Shown here: in pieces, positions 28,460 through 44,028 of the stretch
How positions within the stretch are numbered: position 1 is the stretch's first letter
Layout: every line of letters starts with the position of its first letter
Notes under the pieces: model-generated
What the model was told of the DNA's origin: nothing
The model's database searches: none
The model's input: the letters and a program-made list of their open reading frames with translations, nothing else
Translations under genes and position numbers: made by a program
NCBI GenBank assembly: GCA_947500875.1
Contig: CANMUN010000007.1
Location: forward strand, 2,244 to 66,243
DNA: 64,000 bases
DNA from: Flavobacteriales bacterium
Lineage (GTDB): Bacteria > Bacteroidota > Bacteroidia > Flavobacteriales_D > Crocinitomicaceae
Direction of reading: 5' to 3'

Positions 28460-30204
28460 TTCGATGGTTCTTGTTCGCGCTTTGGGCGGTACCTTGTTAC
28501 GGACAAGTCTTGCCAGCGAACCGAGCGGTGGATTGGACTGTCGCGGGATTGAACGATACTAACACCATAGGATTTACCTATTACAATGTGGTTCAAGAAG
28601 GCGCTGTGAACGATGGGATTACTCCGGTAAATGCCGTTGTTGATAGCTTATTGGCCTTGAATCAGCCAGTGGGAGTGCATCTTCATTTTCCGGCAGGGAG
28701 TTATTTTTTCAATCAACCGTTATCGCTTCCCAGCAATACCCGGATCAGTGGTGCAGGAGCGGATGCAACGCATTGGATTTTCGATTTGGGAGGGTCCGGT
28801 CATTCCGTGCAAACTTCAGGAAGCTTGGTGAGTGCTGATAGCAGTTCTCTAACGGTCGCTGGGGTGAAAGGAAATACGTGGATTGTGGTAGCTAATGCCA
28901 ACGCATTCTTTGCGGGCGCTTGGGTTCGAATTCGTCAGCAGGATGCAGATTTAGTGACCTCGAATTGGGCCTTGAACAGCGTAGGGCAATTGGTGAAAGT
29001 CGATAGCGTTGGCGGAGATACCCTTTACTTGCACAGCGCTTTGCGCTTGGATTATCCCTTGAACCGTTTACCCAAGGTGGTGCGTATTACCATGAAACGC
29101 AACATTGGGTTGGAGTGTTTGTCTTTTGAGCGTATGGACAATACCGCTCCGGAACAAGCAAGCGTAATTCATTTTACCTATGCGGAAAATTGCTGGTTCA
29201 GCGGCTTGGAATCCAACAAAACGACGTTTGGGCATGTGGAATTTGAAAGCGTGGCCAATTCAAAAGTCGAAAAGAGTTATTTCTACGATGCCTTTGACTA
29301 CGGAGGCGGGGGAAGGGGCTATGGGGTGGTCATGCATTTCACAACGAATGAATGTTTAATTGAAAATAACGTGTTTAAGCATTTGCGCCACAGCATTATA
29401 CTGCAAGCGGGTTCCAATGGAAATGTTGCTGCCTTTAACCATTCCACCGATCCCTATTGGACCAATGCCAATCCCTTATTGGGAGGGAACTCAGCAGGCG
29501 AATTAGTGCTTCACGGCAATTATGTGTACGCGAATCTATTCGAACAGAACGACGTCCAAAACATTGTGATTGATAATTCGCATGGTGGAAACGGTCCCTA
29601 CAATACCTTCTTACGGAATCGGGCCTCCTTGTATGGGATATTTTTCTCCGACAATACCAGCCCTTCGCAGAACTTCATAGGCAATGAAATTCCGAATACC
29701 GGTTTTCCTTACAGCACAGTGAATTACAATATTCTAGGCAACGATCAGTTCAGTTACGGCAATAACAACAAGGGAACCGCAGCTCCCGCTGGAACATCGA
29801 ATTTACTGGACACTAGCTATTACTACGCGGTAAAGCCAGACTTTGTGCAAGGCTACCAATGGGGAAGAATCGGTTTGCCGAATGCCATGAACAGTGCTAA
29901 AGTTCCCGCAACGAACCGCTTTGAGGGCAACGATATTTTTGCTGGAGCCTGTGGCAAGGAAGATTATTATGCAGGTTTGTCGGAACGTGTTAAGCATTCA
30001 ATTTACCCCAATCCCGTGAGCGAAACCCTGTGGGTTCGAGCTGCTGGGCATGGGGAAATGTACCGAATTTTCGACCTGCAAGGAAGGTTGTGGATGGGAG
30101 GAGTTTTAACCACGGACTTACAAGCGATTTCGGTGAGTCACTTGCCGCAAGGAATGTACCTGTGGTCCTGTGGCGAAAGGGTAGACCGCTTCGTTAAAAA
30201 CTAA
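28456..30204 (+). CDS. right-handed beta-helix-like secreted protein with T9SS type A C-terminal sorting domain
   Basis: The ATGA overlap with the upstream stop suggests the start at 28456. Signal peptide and parallel-beta-helix-like repeats are present. The C-terminal tail is IYPNPVSETLWV...GMYLW. Confidence 0.75.
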   Translation: MIRWFLFALWAVPCYGQVLPANRAVDWTVAGLNDTNTIGFTYYNVVQEGAVNDGITPVNAVVDSLLALNQPVGVHLHFPAGSYFFNQPLSLPSNTRISGAGADATHWIFDLGGSGHSVQTSGSLVSADSSSLTVAGVKGNTWIVVANANAFFAGAWVRIRQQDADLVTSNWALNSVGQLVKVDSVGGDTLYLHSALRLDYPLNRLPKVVRITMKRNIGLECLSFERMDNTAPEQASVIHFTYAENCWFSGLESNKTTFGHVEFESVANSKVEKSYFYDAFDYGGGGRGYGVVMHFTTNECLIENNVFKHLRHSIILQAGSNGNVAAFNHSTDPYWTNANPLLGGNSAGELVLHGNYVYANLFEQNDVQNIVIDNSHGGNGPYNTFLRNRASLYGIFFSDNTSPSQNFIGNEIPNTGFPYSTVNYNILGNDQFSYGNNNKGTAAPAGTSNLLDTSYYYAVKPDFVQGYQWGRIGLPNAMNSAKVPATNRFEGNDIFAGACGKEDYYAGLSERVKHSIYPNPVSETLWVRAAGHGEMYRIFDLQGRLWMGGVLTTDLQAISVSHLPQGMYLWSCGERVDRFVKN

Positions 30205-30656
30205 GCGGATTCTTGCACTGAACCTTTCTTGGATTTTCGATAGAGGTAGGTCTCATAAATGAAGCGTTTAGCAAAGCGGACCTGTTTATCGGAGTTGACG
30301 AGTTTTTTAAATACGTTGGCATTCACACCGAAATACTCATAGGTATCGCCGTTCGTAAACGTGATTTCCAACAAGAGTCCTTTGTGCTTGTAATCCGCAA
30401 TGCCGCATTCGGCGATGGTAGCGGTATATTCTGCCAAATTCGCTTCTTTGGTTTCTGGGGCGATGCTCACGAGGAAATGATAACCATCGGTTATTTCACG
30501 GCCCATAACGGTAGCCTCCGCATGCATGGGGTCGTCCTCTTGGAATTTATCGGGATGCCATTGCTTGACTAGTCGGCGGTAGGTGCTTTTAAGGGGGGCA
30601 AGTTCGATAGAACCTTCAATCTCGAATAGTTTTTTGTACTGGTTGATGCGTTTCAT
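30201..30656 (-). CDS. J-domain protein fused to a KTSC-like domain
   Basis: J-domain HPD motif (LVKQWHPDKF) followed by a KTSC-like block (LEITFTNGDTYEYFGV....F..L). The start is taken at MKRINQYKK. The track start at 30731 is a less likely extension. Confidence 0.7.
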   Translation of the reverse strand: MKRINQYKKLFEIEGSIELAPLKSTYRRLVKQWHPDKFQEDDPMHAEATVMGREITDGYHFLVSIAPETKEANLAEYTATIAECGIADYKHKGLLLEITFTNGDTYEYFGVNANVFKKLVNSDKQVRFAKRFIYETYLYRKSKKGSVQESA

Positions 30657-30830
30657 TGGAGGAGGAGAAAAAAAGATATTAGAATAAGTGTCCGCTAGTC
30701 GGGTGCAAAGATAGGCATAGATTTTCGGCAAAACCTTATCCTAGATGATAATTAATAGAGGGGTACTTTCTAGTCGTTTTTTCGTGTGAGCCTCTATTTT
30801 TTACTACATTTATCGTACAAAAATGAGGTC

Positions 30831-31205
30831 ATGAAAACAGAATATAAAATAATTCAATCTCCCTACACTATAGAATTAAGCTTGGAGGTTGAGAAGATGC
30901 TCAACGCGGGTTGGACTTTGGTGGGGGGATTAAGTGCACAGGATGGATTTTTTTATCAAGCGATTGTGCGTAAAGCCTTTACTGGGGCGGTTAAATTAGT
31001 TGATGCTGGTCCAAATAAGCTAGCTATTGTTAAGTTGGTTAAAGATTTTACTGGATTCGATTTAAAAGAGGCCAAGGATTTAGTCGATGGTGCTCCAGCG
31101 ATCATTGAAGGCCGAACGGTAGGCAATTTAACGCGGCCTTTCACCGAGGAGGAAGAACGTGAATTTCGAAGTCAATTGTTGGAAGCTGGAGCGAACATAG
31201 AGTAA
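30831..31205 (+). CDS. small two-domain protein: DUF1737/DUF4177-like N-terminal domain fused to a ribosomal bL12 (L7/L12) C-terminal-domain homologue
   Basis: The C-terminal 75 aa ([39 protein letters not shown]...LLEAGANIE) aligns by eye with E. coli bL12 ([38 protein letters not shown]...LEEAGAEVE). The N-terminus is MKTEYKIIQ...[11 protein letters not shown]...YQAIV. It is the first gene of the RT operon and ends 22 nt before the RT start. Confidence 0.75.
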   Translation: [124 protein letters not shown]

Positions 31206-31227
31206 GTTCACCATACAGAGGCTTATT

Positions 31228-39298: not shown

Positions 39299-39754
39299 TT
39301 AATCCTCCAACTTGGGATAAACGCAAAAATTGTAAAGGGTTGAGGTTCTACCGTCCATGGCGTGTCGAAACGAAATGCAATCCAGTGTACCCCGAATTTC
39401 ATCAATGTAAATTCCTCTTTTGGTGGTGCGTGATGTGGGTTGAAAATGCATCATCTGCATGAGCTGATAGAACCCTGTAACTCCCAGTTCGGTTAACGGA
39501 TCACTTTCCTTAAGGCCTTTCCCCATGCACAATTGACTACACCCCACTGCAAGGATCTTGAGTTCTTCGGGGTCGGTGGTTTTGGGTTCATTGAAAAAAT
39601 CCGTAGATCGGTAGGTTTCGGTCCCTTGTTCCAAGAAAAGCGCTGCCTTGGTGAAGAGGTAGGGGAATTGCTGTTCGAGCGCATGAAGCTGATCGCTTTC
39701 GGACAGGTTGTCCATGACTTCGTCCAACGATTGGTGTGGTGGGTTGTTTTCCAT
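39299..39754 (-). CDS. hypothetical protein
   Basis: 151-aa ORF with no recognisable motif. It is followed by the shared terminator. The overlapping alternative ORFs in the track are shorter and less plausible. Confidence 0.45.
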   Translation of the reverse strand: MENNPPHQSLDEVMDNLSESDQLHALEQQFPYLFTKAALFLEQGTETYRSTDFFNEPKTTDPEELKILAVGCSQLCMGKGLKESDPLTELGVTGFYQLMQMMHFQPTSRTTKRGIYIDEIRGTLDCISFRHAMDGRTSTLYNFCVYPKLED

Positions 39755-39834
39755 AGGTTTAAAAGTAGCAATTTTAGGACTTGTTACTTTTGCTGTGCGA
39801 TAAATGGCTAGTTTTGATGTGTTTAAACTAAACC

Positions 39835-40281
39835 ATGGAAAAAATACTATTCAACGGACTCGAAGAAGGGGGGACATATCAGATGCGGACCAGCGAATTT
39901 AAACCCAAGCAAGGGTATCAATCCATTTTACAAGAGTTTGATTCCCTCTATGAAAGCTATCAAGGCTCAGGCAAGCTATTTTCGGTACATGGACAGGATG
40001 CTGTGGTTGTTTTGGCGGATACCCATACATTAGCCCTAGTTTTAAATGACCTGGATTTTACCGATTACAGCGCTTTTGCTGAGAATTTATCGCAATTAAA
40101 GGATTACTTATCGAAGGTTGGAATTTCGGCCGAAACGAGCGCAATGTTGGTTCGAATGTTGGAAAACGAGGATTTATCGGTAGGGGGCATCATAGGACAA
40201 CTTGCTGAACCTGGACAAACCATCACGGTCCAATGTATGGATTCCTTGTACGGGAATAACGAATACGAAATAAATGTTTGA
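39835..40281 (+). CDS. hypothetical protein
   Basis: 148-aa acidic ORF, divergent from the previous gene. No recognisable motif. Confidence 0.45.
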   Translation: MEKILFNGLEEGGTYQMRTSEFKPKQGYQSILQEFDSLYESYQGSGKLFSVHGQDAVVVLADTHTLALVLNDLDFTDYSAFAENLSQLKDYLSKVGISAETSAMLVRMLENEDLSVGGIIGQLAEPGQTITVQCMDSLYGNNEYEINV

Positions 40282-40317
40282 GCCTTAGAAAGGCGTTTGA
40301 TGATGGGTTCTGTTTAT

Positions 40318-42354
40318 CTAATTCAACAGCAAATCAACCATCAACCGTTGATGTACTTGGATGTCTTGGAATAACCATTCTTTCCCCGCATCTCGAAGAT
40401 CTGCATTGTCTTTACATTGTTGTAGCATGATCAAGAATTTGAGCGATGCAACGCTTACTTGCCGAATCTTGCCGGAGGCATCGAGGTAATGTTCCCTTTT
40501 GACCCGCGGAGTCCAATTGGATGCCGAGCTGTTGACATCGCTACCAATCATAGCATAGTTGCCGAAGCAATTGATCTGTTCTTGGGTGGGATCACCATTG
40601 ACCCCTTTGGCATTTGCTTGAGGAAAATAATGCTCTAAACTTCGTCGCGTTCGCGAGAAATAGAAGTGATGGAACATGTTGAGGTCAAACTTGGTACACC
40701 CCATGCGGTCAAAAAAAGCGGAGACGACTTCATCGTTTTTAGCCGGATCGCCGCGCAAATCCTCAAAATATCGGTGCCAAATCGCATAATCCAGGTAATT
40801 GAAAACAAACAAGGGAATTCCCTTCGTTATGGCTGATCCATCGCCGAAAACCGCATTAAAATCAAGGTGCGTATTGCGGATTTGTTCATCGATTTTCCAA
40901 ATTCCAGATTCATCCTTCACGAGTAAAGTAGCGTCAAATGAACCGGGTTTAGGGACGTTGATGTCGTTTAAATTTTCTGGATTCAGGTAAACGTCCTTGA
41001 GGTATTTGTCCGCGAGGCGAAGTACAAAATTGCAGTAATCATCAACGTTTATGCACTGTATGTTTTCCTGACGAAAGAAATAAAACAGGCAATAAAACAG
41101 GTAGTTCTTACGCTGCCTTGCGGTAAATGAAACCTCAAACATGGAAAGAAGGTGCACCAATTTAAATTGCGCTTCGTCCTTTCCACCGCTGTTTTTCAAA
41201 TAGCCGCTCTTTTCCTCTTTATACCAGTGTTGGAGTTTCCATGGGTTGTTGTCTAGCGTATCTTCTTCGTTGGAATGGTGCACGACATAATTATCGAGTA
41301 AGAATTTGGCTTTTAGCAGGTTATAACCAAATTGCCTCACGAAATCCTCGGTCAATTCCCCTAATTCATCGAACTCGTTCAGTAAGCTTTTATCGTCCAA
41401 CGTGAATTTTATCGGATCGAAGGAAGCGTCGTTGGGGTCAGAAATTCGGGTGATTTTGAGCACGATTAATAAAAAATTGGAGAAATCAAGGATGGGCTGA
41501 AACGCATCAATCTCATGTGCGGTGTTTTCGGTTTTTTCCGCGCTGGATGCTGTTAAAATATCCTTGATACTAACCGTTTTTTGGTCGGAAGCAGCTGCTG
41601 CTGTAACAGAGGGAAGGTCTCCAAATTCCTTCGGCTTAAAGGTGCATAAGTTATTTCCAAAAATCTTTGGGTCGTTGTATTTTTGTTGAATGTAAACGTT
41701 CATCTGACTGCAGAATTCCCAGAGCTGATGGAATGTGTTTTTGTCTGCATCGCTTGAGAGCTTTTCGATCAATCGTGCCTTAACGATTTCGTGTTTTTCC
41801 AACTGTTCTCCTCTGGAGTTCATGATTTCAAAATAATGATTCAAGTCAACTTCCCTTGGAACTTGATAGTGGATGATGTGGACCTTGTTCAAGAAATAGG
41901 AGCAGAAGTTTGCTGTGTCGTGTACAGGGACAATTTCCTTCAGGGATGCTTCGGCGGACTGAAAGCCATCAACAATTCCGGCGTCCTTTTGGTCGATGTT
42001 AAAATGGGGAATGCTCCGGATGCTGTCATTCGATTTTTTGCGTGCACGGTAGGTGAGTTGGTTGTTCAATGGTATGCCCAAAGCATTGAGAATCAAGTTA
42101 AGAGTGGTCAAGCGTTGTTGTCCATCGATTACTTCAAATACGTTACCGCCTTTGTGAAATGAAACCAATGTGCCGATATAGTAGTTTTCTTTTCGGTGGA
42201 TCATGGAATCGTAAACATCCTGTATTAGCGTTGCAATTTCTTCCTTTTTCCAAGCGTAATTTCGCTGATAAATAGGCACCTCATAGGTGGCATTTGCTCC
42301 GTTAAAGAGTTCACCAATGGTCAAACTTTTGAGGGGTAAATCGGAATTACTCAT
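40318..42354 (-). CDS. DUF262 + DUF1524 protein (GmrSD-like type IV restriction enzyme family)
   Basis: N-terminal YEVPIYQRNYAWKKEEI, VIDGQQRLTTL and FEIMNSRGEQL, the DUF262/ParB-like NTPase motifs. The C-terminal His-Me finger-like block is SLEHYFPQ...FGNYAMIGSDVNSSASN. Confidence 0.85.
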   Translation of the reverse strand: MSNSDLPLKSLTIGELFNGANATYEVPIYQRNYAWKKEEIATLIQDVYDSMIHRKENYYIGTLVSFHKGGNVFEVIDGQQRLTTLNLILNALGIPLNNQLTYRARKKSNDSIRSIPHFNIDQKDAGIVDGFQSAEASLKEIVPVHDTANFCSYFLNKVHIIHYQVPREVDLNHYFEIMNSRGEQLEKHEIVKARLIEKLSSDADKNTFHQLWEFCSQMNVYIQQKYNDPKIFGNNLCTFKPKEFGDLPSVTAAAASDQKTVSIKDILTASSAEKTENTAHEIDAFQPILDFSNFLLIVLKITRISDPNDASFDPIKFTLDDKSLLNEFDELGELTEDFVRQFGYNLLKAKFLLDNYVVHHSNEEDTLDNNPWKLQHWYKEEKSGYLKNSGGKDEAQFKLVHLLSMFEVSFTARQRKNYLFYCLFYFFRQENIQCINVDDYCNFVLRLADKYLKDVYLNPENLNDINVPKPGSFDATLLVKDESGIWKIDEQIRNTHLDFNAVFGDGSAITKGIPLFVFNYLDYAIWHRYFEDLRGDPAKNDEVVSAFFDRMGCTKFDLNMFHHFYFSRTRRSLEHYFPQANAKGVNGDPTQEQINCFGNYAMIGSDVNSSASNWTPRVKREHYLDASGKIRQVSVASLKFLIMLQQCKDNADLRDAGKEWLFQDIQVHQRLMVDLLLN

Positions 42355-43807
42355 TGATTTCCATGAATTTATTCAACTTAAAAAAGTACAAGTAATGCTG
42401 ATAGGTTCCGTCGGCATCCTGTTCCTCCAGCTTTTGCAAATTGGCTTTAATTCTTTTAAGCGGTACAACCGATAATTGTTCGGAAAGCAGGCCGAATAAA
42501 TGCGTCGGAGAATCTGATTCAAGGATGGATTTATAAAGGTTCATGGAATTCGTAACTTGTTCCTTCCCGAGGATGTAATTCTGTGCTGATTGCCATCCTA
42601 AATTGGTGTACTGAGCGCGCAGGGAGTAGGCCCAAACAAAAGCGAAAACTACGAATTGATCGAGCATTTTTAAATCGTTTTGCGTGGGATGAATGGGACA
42701 AAACCTATCAACGTATAGGAGAACAGAGGTATCAAAAAGTAAACGGGCGATTCGGTTACCTACACCGGTTTTGTACTTGCGCAAATCGAGCGTTTTTACC
42801 AGAAAATTATCGTTGATGAAATAGCCCACGTATTTGCTGTTGTCTTGAACATCTTTGAGGATTTCATAATAGTGCTTGGTGTATTCAAAAAAAGGTTTTC
42901 CAGACAAGATGGGCGCTTCTAACTGAAAAGGTTTTAAATCGGTAAATCCCGTAACCGACGGAATGGGCGATTGATTGATCATGTTCGCGTAGGCGTAGGC
43001 TCCTTTGAAATACTGAGCGAAGGGAAAGGTACCTGATTTTGCCAGTCCTTTGAACAGGTGGATGTTGTTTTCATTCAGTTCCGATGCTCGATTTCCTTTG
43101 GTCCATTCTTTCAGTCGGTAGAGGTACTCACTGAATAACAGCGACAGCTGTTGCTGATCTAAATCTTCCCAATTTTTCACCAAATCTTCGATTTCGTCCG
43201 AGCTTAGGTGGTTCATTTCCCGCAGGTGATAGGCTTTCAATAGGTCATGCGGGTAGAGTTTCTTACCCCGAGCGTTTTGCGCATCAAAAAACTGAAAAGC
43301 TTCGGAGATATCATGGGTAATAACCACCATGAATTCACAGTGGCATTGGAGGTATTTCAAAAGATCGTCGCGATCGAATTTTTCTAAATTTCCGAGCCTT
43401 CTTTCCAGTGCCCGATAGTTGGAGGAAATGTTTCGACGGTTGATGGAAATGTTCGACAACGGTTGTTCTAACAACGGTAATTCATGAATGCCCATGGCAT
43501 GAAGTACCAAGGAAAAGGTGATGGTTCGTTGTTGTCCATCAACCATGTTGTAAACCCCTGGTTTTCGTACATCGTGGTGGAGAATGAGGCTTCCAACGCG
43601 GTAAACCTCTTTCTTTTGATTTCGGGCATCGATGATGTCATCCAACAGCTGAAGAGCATTTTTGGCGGTCCATTTATACGGCCTTTGGTAGTTGGGGATG
43701 CGAAGTTGGATGCCTTGAACGCTATTTTTCGTATCCACTCGTGTAATCTTGTGGTTCAACAACAGGTCTTCTACTGTTGTAATACCAAGGGTAAGACTTG
43801 AAGCCAT
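42347..43807 (-). CDS. DUF262 domain protein (no recognisable nuclease domain)
   Basis: The LRIPNYQRPYKWTAKNA, MVDGQQRTITF and FFDAQNARGKKL motifs. It has an 8-nt overlap with the downstream DUF262/DUF1524 gene. Confidence 0.8.
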   Translation of the reverse strand: MASSLTLGITTVEDLLLNHKITRVDTKNSVQGIQLRIPNYQRPYKWTAKNALQLLDDIIDARNQKKEVYRVGSLILHHDVRKPGVYNMVDGQQRTITFSLVLHAMGIHELPLLEQPLSNISINRRNISSNYRALERRLGNLEKFDRDDLLKYLQCHCEFMVVITHDISEAFQFFDAQNARGKKLYPHDLLKAYHLREMNHLSSDEIEDLVKNWEDLDQQQLSLLFSEYLYRLKEWTKGNRASELNENNIHLFKGLAKSGTFPFAQYFKGAYAYANMINQSPIPSVTGFTDLKPFQLEAPILSGKPFFEYTKHYYEILKDVQDNSKYVGYFINDNFLVKTLDLRKYKTGVGNRIARLLFDTSVLLYVDRFCPIHPTQNDLKMLDQFVVFAFVWAYSLRAQYTNLGWQSAQNYILGKEQVTNSMNLYKSILESDSPTHLFGLLSEQLSVVPLKRIKANLQKLEEQDADGTYQHYLYFFKLNKFMEINE

Positions 43808-44028
43808 TTGTACCGTATAAACGTGAATGTTGCGCTCAGTAATTGTTTATTGCCGTGCAATCCAAGCACTAAGATACTCGATTTTTGGATTGCTGTCCTT
43901 TTCCGCTCCTCAGAACCGAGTCACCCAGATTGGAATTTTCTCCATGGAGGTTAATGTGACGATGAAGAAAGGGAAAAGTATCCTTGGCAGTAACCCGTTC
44001 GGTACAAGGTAGATCAATGACATTGGGC

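Follow-up and report, generated by a model that had tools for sequence, protein, structure and literature searches.

What is the factor-docking head of the ribosomal stalk protein bL12 doing in front of a reverse transcriptase (RT) gene? The question is raised by a 64,000-nucleotide (nt) stretch of a Flavobacteriales bacterium (contig CANMUN010000007.1, hereafter the window). There a protein of 124 amino acids (aa) combines a bL12 C-terminal domain (CTD) with a small domain of the DUF1737 type, and its gene stands directly 5' of a four-gene cassette coding for a retron-type RT with a leucine-rich repeat (LRR) extension, an LRR protein, a MoxR-like AAA+ ATPase, and a DUF2201 protein with zincin-like peptidase and von Willebrand factor A (VWA) domains. 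We tentatively favor, at a probability of roughly 0.4, a non-ribosomal role for this bL12-like protein as a clade-specific adaptor or bait of a candidate conflict system. The conflict-system character is suggested by the retron-type RT, the hypervariable mosaic sequence in the RT extension and at the N-terminus of the LRR protein, the GmrSD-like neighbors, and a recurring AAA-DUF2201-LRR module.

The two domains of the bL12-like protein

Residues 54-124 match the Pfam family Ribosomal_L12 (PF00542) with 52.2 bits (E=7.6e-14; cut-off 25.9), and the same residues match solved chains of the E. coli bL12 CTD such as 1ctf at an E of about 1.5e-7. We modeled the 124-aa protein with AlphaFold2 (AF2) from an alignment of 27 sequences, at a predicted local distance difference test (pLDDT) score of 81.7. 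In Foldseek comparisons the model CTD superposed on 1ctf, 3j9y_7, 8yeq, and 8phj_W with target-normalized template modeling (TM) scores of 0.80-0.86 and a root-mean-square deviation (rmsd) of 1.6-2.4 Å, and ClpS was a far weaker structural match (E of about 0.1). Pfam searches of the protein did not find Ribosomal_L12_N (PF16320), which all canonical matches carry; the flexible hinge is absent as well, and against the NCBIfam L12 equivalog TIGR00855 the protein scores 40.4, below the cut-off of 84.4. The gene is also outside the rplJ-rplL or rplK-rplA-rplJ-rplL-rpoB context, its neighbors being a DnaJ/KTSC gene and the RT gene. By contrast, a canonical gene at another locus, L097 in our numbering, lies within the order secE-nusG-rplKAJL-rpoB. 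No canonical rplL was found inside the window. The bL12-like protein is probably a non-ribosomal copy of the bL12 CTD joined to a DUF1737-fold domain. The ratio of nonsynonymous to synonymous substitution rates (dN/dS) of its gene is 0.13-0.14 between the diverged alleles of two cassette-bearing pairs (window/L001 and L001/L005), and we therefore take it to be a real coding gene.

Helices 4 and 5 of the bL12 CTD contact EF-Tu, EF-G, IF2, and RF3, as outlined in PMC12179292 after Kothe et al. 2004 and Diaconu et al. 2005. Over these helices (aa 60-89) the bL12-like protein has a mean identity of 87% to 14 canonical Bacteroidota bL12 proteins, compared with 31-42% over the remaining CTD. The equivalents of E. 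coli K65, K70, L80, E82, and K84 are retained, and in place of R73 there is a lysine, as in Bacteroidota bL12. With one canonical Bacteroidota rplL the helix 4-5 segment has 28 of 31 residues in common at a nucleotide identity of just 81%, which indicates that selection has preserved these residues ever since an ancient duplication. The kept helices are not explained by recent gene conversion from rplL, since nucleotide identity to canonical rplL in this segment is 72-81%, about that of a pair of canonical genes (82%). In cassette-bearing pairs the two helices show 9-10 synonymous differences (Sd) against one nonsynonymous difference (Nd), a dN/dS of about 0.03. The helix 4-5 face is thus under very strong purifying selection in cassette-bearing alleles, and where the allele context is known, changes of canonical residues in helices 4-5 sit in cassette-less alleles. 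The idea that these helices are relaxed in the family, with 14 of 30 columns variable, was rejected, as the test was not significant (p=0.05-0.2) and cassette-bearing alleles are strongly constrained. When L001 was compared with the window and L005, the proportion of synonymous differences (pS) was 0.45-0.50 in the helix 4-5 segment and 0.09-0.20 elsewhere in the gene, an unevenness that suggests recombination within the gene.

Before the last helix the family carries an insertion of its own, predicted in the AF2 model to add a β-hairpin. Residues 94-100 are invariant across 13 aligned family members, and in the family alignment the invariant stretch, made up of the insertion and the C-terminal part, covers aa 94-111.

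The N-terminal 52 residues belong to a different fold. The AF2 model has strands at residues 4-10, 29-37, and 40-47 and a helix at 13-25, giving the one helix and three-stranded antiparallel sheet of about 50 aa that are the hallmark of DUF1737. The N-domain matches PHROG 21831 (E=4.5e-8). It superposes on phage DUF1737 proteins with TM scores of 0.77-0.86 and an rmsd of 0.7-2.1 Å, and for the annotated phage DUF1737 proteins in BFVD these values are 0.79-0.82 and 1.6-2.1 Å. A phmmer search of 1.84 billion representative proteins returned just 24 matches to the N-domain, mostly stand-alone proteins of 46-91 aa. When the N-domain and its 19 nearest small relatives were taken together, 16 of the 20 sequences matched DUF1737 at E<=0.01 (best 3.6e-8). 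Matches of the N-domain to giant proteins were discarded as spurious, being summed weak matches to Big_4 repeats. DUF4177 gave a single weak match (probability 0.23).

Several of these features had been proposed in an earlier note made from the letters of the window and their translations. Its reading of the C-terminal half as a bL12 CTD is borne out by the profile search and by Foldseek with the AF2 model, as are the loss of the bL12 N-domain and hinge and the choice of the helix 4-5 region as the best conserved part. The insertion that it put at about ten residues is present and is eight residues long. Of its label "DUF1737/DUF4177-like", the first name stands and the second falls away.

DUF1737 has recently been described in gp84 of phage phi24B, where the domain, built from one helix and three antiparallel strands, forms a hexamer in the central pore of the hexons of the major capsid protein (bioRxiv 10.64898/2026.04.10.717836). 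The same preprint counts about 3000 DUF1737 proteins, mostly single-domain proteins of phages and prophages. A capsid-binding, ring-forming phage domain was not considered in the earlier note, and its presence widens the range of plausible mechanisms.

The cassette and its variable 5' slot

The bL12-like gene ends 22 nt before the RT gene on the same strand, and no terminator-like site was found in this gap. The arrangement is identical in loci L001-L006, so that in this clade the gene is indeed, as first suggested, the leading gene of the RT operon, presumably co-transcribed with the cassette. The last 68 nt or so 5' of its ATG travel with it in L016 (boundary at window position 30763), and TAnnTTTG-like motifs in the intergenic region may be Bacteroidetes promoters. 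The features of the locus are collected in Table 1.

Table 1. Features of the locus, with positions in the window
Feature	Positions	Strand	Basis or remark
J-domain and KTSC protein, divergent from the bL12-like gene	30201..30656	-	Pfam KTSC E=1.5e-12, DnaJ 23.5 bits
Putative divergent promoter region between the DnaJ/KTSC and bL12-like genes, 174 nt	30657..30830	.	Alignments
bL12-like gene, 124 aa	30831..31205	+	ATG start; Pfam, AF2/Foldseek, dN/dS
N-domain, aa 1-52, β-α-β-β; motifs EYK(I/V), GW.L.GG, FYQA	30831..30986	+	Pfam/PHROG/Foldseek
Helices 4-5 of the CTD, aa 60-89	31008..31097	+	Identity to canonical bL12, substitution counts
Family-specific 8-residue insertion, aa 93-100 (EGRTVGNL)	31107..31130	+	Alignment with Bacteroidota bL12
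1420-aa protein, retron-type RT (aa ~37-350) and ~1070-aa LRR/DUF4116 extension	31228..35490	+	PADLOC, Pfam
LRR protein, 421 aa	35500..36765	+	Pfam LRR_8, LRR_4; kept in all related cassettes
MoxR-like AAA+ (AAA_5), 381 aa	36762..37907	+	Pfam; 62-78% identical in related cassettes
DUF2201_N zincin-like peptidase and VWA-like domain (DUF2201), 389 aa	37914..39083	+	Pfam, motifs
151-aa gene, no Pfam match	39299..39754	-	Homologues beside related cassettes
148-aa gene, no Pfam match	39835..40281	+	Open reading frame
Two GmrSD_N (DUF262-type) genes	40318-42354 and 42347-43807	-	96.6% nt identity to an L099 region with GmrSD_N matches

The RT is of the retron type. PADLOC places it with RT_III-A (E=8e-68) and Ec107-like RTs (E=8.3e-67), and the translation holds the motifs NANFH (NAxxH), QTVTGIVVN (VTG), and YSDD (YxDD). 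A Foldseek search with residues 351-1000 of the RT protein gave weak LRR matches, all with E above 0.001, and revealed no effector domain. PADLOC matched none of the accessory proteins of the locus, and they include no known retron effector type. There was also no Rfam match in 30000-40500, and the sequences upstream folded no better than shuffled ones (z=+0.4 for the window, -1.7 for L011, and -0.4 for L013); the 5' gaps of L013 and L019 are poorly conserved. The one candidate for the a1/a2 pairing of an msr-msd, a 9-nt inverted repeat at 30631/30815, has no compensatory change in L001 and extends into the KTSC gene.

In a comparison of the window with L005, identity is 92-100% over the RT domain (aa 61-360) and drops to 48-75% in two stretches of the RT protein (residues ~960-1080 and 1200-1380) and in the N-terminal 125 aa of the LRR protein. 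These segments belong to hypervariable mosaic patches at about 33950-34550, 34850-35300, and 35600-35900 of the window. Synonymous divergence is high in the patches as well (pS 0.4-0.7), and they therefore reflect allele exchange, not only positive selection. Diversification by a diversity-generating retroelement was ruled out, since 30000-40500 has no direct repeats of at least 30 nt.

In the DUF2201 protein the HExxH motif (H72, E73, H76) and the DxSxS motif (D267-S271) of the metal ion-dependent adhesion site (MIDAS) are invariant. The Walker B segment of the AAA+ protein, residues 117-126 (LLLDDINRAD), has an invariant D-D in all six aligned homologues; in MoxR-type ATPases this is usually D-E. 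Outside the cassette, the J-domain/KTSC gene may belong to the system, as a copy 82% identical in its KTSC gene stands beside the related cassette of L011 in another genomic neighborhood. Homologues of the 151-aa gene are found beside the cassettes of L013 (47% identical) and L020 (40%), and its dN/dS is 0.75-0.79 between close alleles. The two GmrSD_N genes look like type IV restriction genes, and their position directly downstream puts the locus in a defense island. There are no phage genes nearby the bL12-like gene.

We collected 17 homologues of the RT protein with 32-83% identity. The four-gene cassette is also present in L011-L015 and L018-L021, loci of Flavobacteriales/Crocinitomicaceae metagenome-assembled genomes with differing genomic neighborhoods. 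We inspected seven distant cassettes in which the RT is 32-44% identical (L011-L015, L019, and the P0126 locus); all seven have the RT, LRR, AAA, and VWA genes. The slot 5' of the RT gene holds a VWA_2 gene and a Mg-chelatase-like AAA+ gene in L011, a 350-407-aa protein family without assigned function in L012, L015, and the P0126 locus, and an unrelated protein of at least 452 aa in L014; in L013 and L019 it is empty. The bL12-like gene is a clade-specific accessory in this variable slot. A theme of translation mimics for the slot was considered and dropped, the MA3 match in the first gene of L012 being weak (22.4 bits) and not seen in its L015 homologue. In L012 (5519-6731, minus strand) and L015 (5451-6662, minus strand), both with a 350-407-aa first gene, the position of the J-domain/KTSC gene is occupied by a divergent upstream pair made up of a gene like those for extracytoplasmic function (ECF) sigma factors and a conserved 207-aa gene.

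The AAA_5 and DUF2201 genes are kept as a pair in about 80 loci. Without an RT the pair is widespread, with 49-59% AAA identity, and is repeatedly found beside LRR proteins (L028, L060, L068, L071, and L073). Its partners there include a 1390-aa LRR protein with a 401-aa DUF4116-repeat protein, a 907-aa LRR protein encoded between the AAA and VWA genes, and a fusion of HU (Bac_DNA_binding) to LRRs. These AAA_5-DUF2201-LRR loci look like an undescribed LRR-type MoxR-vWA ternary system. We found no description of the RT-LRR/LRR/AAA_5/DUF2201 cassette in the literature searched, and the four-gene cassette itself may be the more general discovery.

Possible roles of the bL12-like protein

As an adaptor or bait, the bL12-like protein would be expressed from a promoter of its own, its gene being the leading cistron of a transcript that runs on into the four-gene cassette. 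Its C-terminal module would be an exapted Bacteroidota stalk CTD with a docking face nearly unchanged, and its N-terminal module a DUF1737 fold in place of the bL10-binding dimerization domain. The protein would thereby show a stalk-like docking surface, probably multivalent through DUF1737, and possibly a capsid-binding surface too. With these surfaces it might catch a protein or a structure of an invader, or it might link a translational GTPase to the LRR/MoxR/VWA-zincin proteins. If so, a bacterium would have taken the factor-docking head off the stalk, joined it to a module with which phages bind capsids, and coupled the product to a candidate immune cassette, as a bacterial counterpart of the integrated decoys in plant LRR immune receptors.

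A more elaborate form of the adaptor, which draws on three elements actually present at the locus but which we regard as distinctly improbable, would follow the logic of Gol, EF-Tu, and Lit with unrelated parts. A DUF1737 ring on the hexons of an assembling phage capsid would cluster six stalk-mimic CTDs, and these would bring EF-Tu or EF-G to the MoxR/VWA-zincin (HExxH) proteins for cleavage or sequestration. The result would be an abortive-infection device, bridging capsid and translation, attached to a retron-type RT/LRR sensor.

A link between gene and cassette can be looked for where the cassette is gone. L016 joins window position 31237 to 39189. The 22-nt spacer is still there, followed by 10 nt from the start of the RT open reading frame, which identifies L016 as a deletion derivative; little is left of its KTSC gene, and the counterpart of window 39764-44026 is gone. 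L099 (at its positions 1993-2976) joins 31207 to 39175 through a different filler sequence. Between the cassette-bearing L001 and the cassette-less L099 the bL12-like gene has Nd=12 and Sd=1, as against Nd 2 and Sd 11 in the KTSC gene and Nd 28 and Sd 53 in the upstream 586-aa gene (Fisher p=2e-4 and 1e-4, respectively). The L099 branch accounts for about nine of the 12 changes (A49G, A53E, E58K, A65T, I66V, K79I, A81V, E93A, and K122L), four of them in helices 4-5, and three (A53E, K79I, and E93A) are common to L016 and L099, even though dS between these two is 0.35. As far as these small substitution counts go, this pattern fits a functional coupling of gene and cassette with relaxed or redirected selection after loss; neutrality and positive selection in the cassette-less allele are not separable (p=0.17). 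Natural controls are at hand in the alleles that have or lack the cassette and in the cassettes that have or lack the gene.

A number of findings weigh against the adaptor or bait. In L016 and L099 the bL12-like gene is intact beside the 151-aa gene after loss of the four-gene cassette, and it could therefore act alone or with other neighbors. The selection contrast consists of 13 substitutions in one allele pair, and dN/dS is inflated at low divergence, as between the very close window and L005, which both carry the cassette and show Nd 4 and Sd 1. Carriers of the gene form one narrow clade of 17 protein clusters, with one GTDB genome (L016). Among close relatives, in which the bL12-like protein is 92-97% identical, the flanking genes are shared along with the gene order, and the synteny is thus largely vertical inheritance. 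By tblastn the gene is absent from seven of the seven distant cassettes, and an unfiltered hidden Markov model search of six-frame open reading frames from 96 loci did not find it beside distant cassettes either. Conservation next to the RT gene, on which the earlier note had made its proposal depend, therefore holds in the gene's own clade (L001-L006) and fails in the seven distant loci; with the gene absent where RT identity is 44% or less, the system does not need it. On the protein side, the N-domain scores 20.3-23.1 bits against DUF1737 (PF08410), 0.9-3.7 bits short of the cut-off of 24, and capsid binding by DUF1737 comes from a single preprint on a distant member. Of 13 family members, two have K68T and seven have K71N/R/H at canonical-invariant positions equivalent to E. 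coli K70 and R73. No retron noncoding RNA (msr-msd) was found at the window or at related loci.

Part of this evidence would suit an autonomous small gene, perhaps phage-derived, that works alone or with the J-domain/KTSC and 151-aa neighbors and merely has the cassette downstream. Its own promoter region travels with it, it persists in L016 and L099, and all distant cassettes lack it. DUF1737 proteins are mostly single-domain proteins of phages and prophages, and crAss-like phages encode L12-CTD proteins. We think this explanation unlikely, as the RT gene is a mere 22 nt away with no terminator between, and the spacer and RT remnant in L016 indicate that a cassette was deleted from an operon, not inserted behind a free-standing gene. 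The sharp excess of amino acid changes in the cassette-less allele also speaks against independence, as do the lack of IMG/VR relatives and of phage genes nearby. That the gene has its own promoter and is tolerated alone in cassette-less genomes bears in turn on a dominant-negative effector, since an uncontrolled toxin should not persist. Such an effector, once activated and possibly hexameric, would sequester EF-G, EF-Tu, or IF2, so that translation stops and the infected cell is sacrificed. The kept helix 4-5 docking face would serve this purpose, avidity could come from DUF1737 hexamers of the kind known for gp84, and the gene is on the 5' side of the RT gene, which we take to be a frequent place of small retron effectors, as in retron Sen2. 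The contact between CTD and factor is weak and transient, though, and few proteins are as abundant as EF-Tu, which means that titration would require very high expression; the gene is also missing from most cassettes. Modules of this type have been proposed for MoxR-vWA systems (Kaur et al. 2020). All in all a dominant-negative effector seems quite unlikely. Of the two mechanisms offered in the earlier note, a decoy that titrates factors and an adaptor, we accordingly favor the adaptor or bait; titration is the weaker, given the weak contact, the abundance of EF-Tu, and the persistence of the gene alone with a promoter.

Two further explanations give up the translation link or take it literally. 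A pure scaffold, in which the L12/ClpS fold and DUF1737 only multimerize or bind for an LRR/MoxR/VWA assembly with no link to translation or capsids, would have had no need to keep 28 of 31 docking-helix residues while the rest of the CTD fell to 31-42% identity. In bL12, moreover, dimerization is a property of the N-domain, which is missing here, and not of the CTD. The invariant aa 94-111 suggest a new interface and would sit well with a scaffold, as would the common fold of ClpS-like adaptors and the "multimerizing" label given to L12/ClpS in vWA proteins (Kaur et al. 2020). On balance we hold a scaffold to be slightly less probable still than a dominant-negative effector. An alternative, condition-dependent ribosomal stalk protein is hardly credible; a bL12 CTD is present, but the bL10-binding N-domain and hinge are not, the score is below the equivalog cut-off, and the gene lies outside the rplKAJL-rpoB context in one narrow clade.

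Comparison with known systems

The closest precedent for the adaptor or bait comes from Bacteroidetes. Kaur et al. 2020 (PMC7159879) described L12/ClpS domains, termed "multimerizing", as insertions in the vWA proteins of MoxR-vWA ternary conflict systems of the beta-propeller type, and proposed that these systems borrow inactive cellular modules as decoys or dominant-negative modules. The statement in the earlier note that no such domain was known from a described defense system is therefore contradicted. The present locus resembles these systems in its L12-type domain, its Bacteroidetes host, the theme of a borrowed module, and the pairing of a MoxR-type AAA+ gene with a vWA gene, here AAA_5 and DUF2201 with an invariant DxSxS. 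It differs from them, as far as the published description allows comparison, in that the L12-type domain is a separate 124-aa protein with DUF1737 and not part of the vWA protein. The vWA protein here is of the DUF2201/zincin type, and the third components are LRR proteins, one with a retron-type RT; no VMAP, iSTAND/STAND, FtsH, or beta-propeller third component, as in the four subsystems described so far, was matched in the locus. A DUF1737 domain and a bL12 CTD on a retron-RT/LRR/MoxR/zincin-VWA cassette is thus a known theme in a new architecture, confined to one narrow clade.

To retrons, the locus is tied by an RT of type III-A or Ec107-like affinity (E of about 1e-67; NAxxH and VTG motifs) and by a small accessory gene adjoining the RT gene. 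It departs from them in lacking a phosphoribosyltransferase (PRTase) or other known effector, and in the ~1070-aa LRR/DUF4116 extension of the RT. The retron classification names no L12, LRR, MoxR, or vWA partner (Mestre et al. 2020, PMC7736814), and the literature searched held nothing relevant on a retron with L7/L12, on DUF2201, or on stand-alone L12 CTD paralogues. The likeness to phi24B gp84 and to single-domain phage DUF1737 proteins is that of the small fold and the PHROG match. In gp84 the domain is attached to an esterase in a phage, whereas here it is attached to a bL12 CTD in a chromosome, and hexamer formation and binding to capsid hexons, as features of gp84, would apply to the bL12-like protein by analogy.

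Detached bL12 CTDs are found in other settings as well. The crAss-like phage cr126_1 encodes a 308-aa protein, gp031 (NC_055884.1; L100 5533-6459), with a bL12 CTD at aa 158-220 (Pfam, 46.4 bits) that is 41% identical to the CTD in the window; its gene lies in a replication module between primase and JAB/ThiF-like genes. BFVD holds more phage L12-CTD proteins, from cr50_1, Ralstonia phage RSJ5, and uncultured Caudovirales phages. Matches to the CTD in phage collections (E<=1e-3) were set aside, as most are host rplL in records labeled phage, and no relatives of the bL12-like protein were found in IMG/VR. A 192-aa protein, P0030 (L008 10001-10579), has a signal-peptide-like N-terminus and two bL12 CTD stretches without the N-domain; its gene adjoins a serine recombinase at the edge of an integrative element with primase, helicase, and integrase.

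With ribosomal bL12 itself, the bL12-like protein shares the PF00542 fold and family and has near-canonical helices 4-5, and it differs in the missing N-domain and hinge, the 8-residue insertion, the diverged remainder of the CTD, and the absence from an rplJ-rplL operon. Phage T4 exclusion brings together the Lit protease, the Gol peptide, and EF-Tu. The improbable capsid-to-translation bridge would have in common with it a capsid-protein cue, a translational GTPase, and an HExxH zinc peptidase, a likeness of logic only between proteins that are not homologous. Cami1, a CARF-RelE protein of type III CRISPR systems (PDB 8phj), is the current example of a defense component tied to contact with the bL12 CTD, and 8phj_W is among the best structural matches of our model CTD. 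Cami1 binds the ribosome's own bL12, whereas here a free copy of the CTD is encoded by a candidate defense locus; if our preferred reading as an adaptor or bait is true, the bL12-like protein would be a further link between the ribosomal stalk and immunity.

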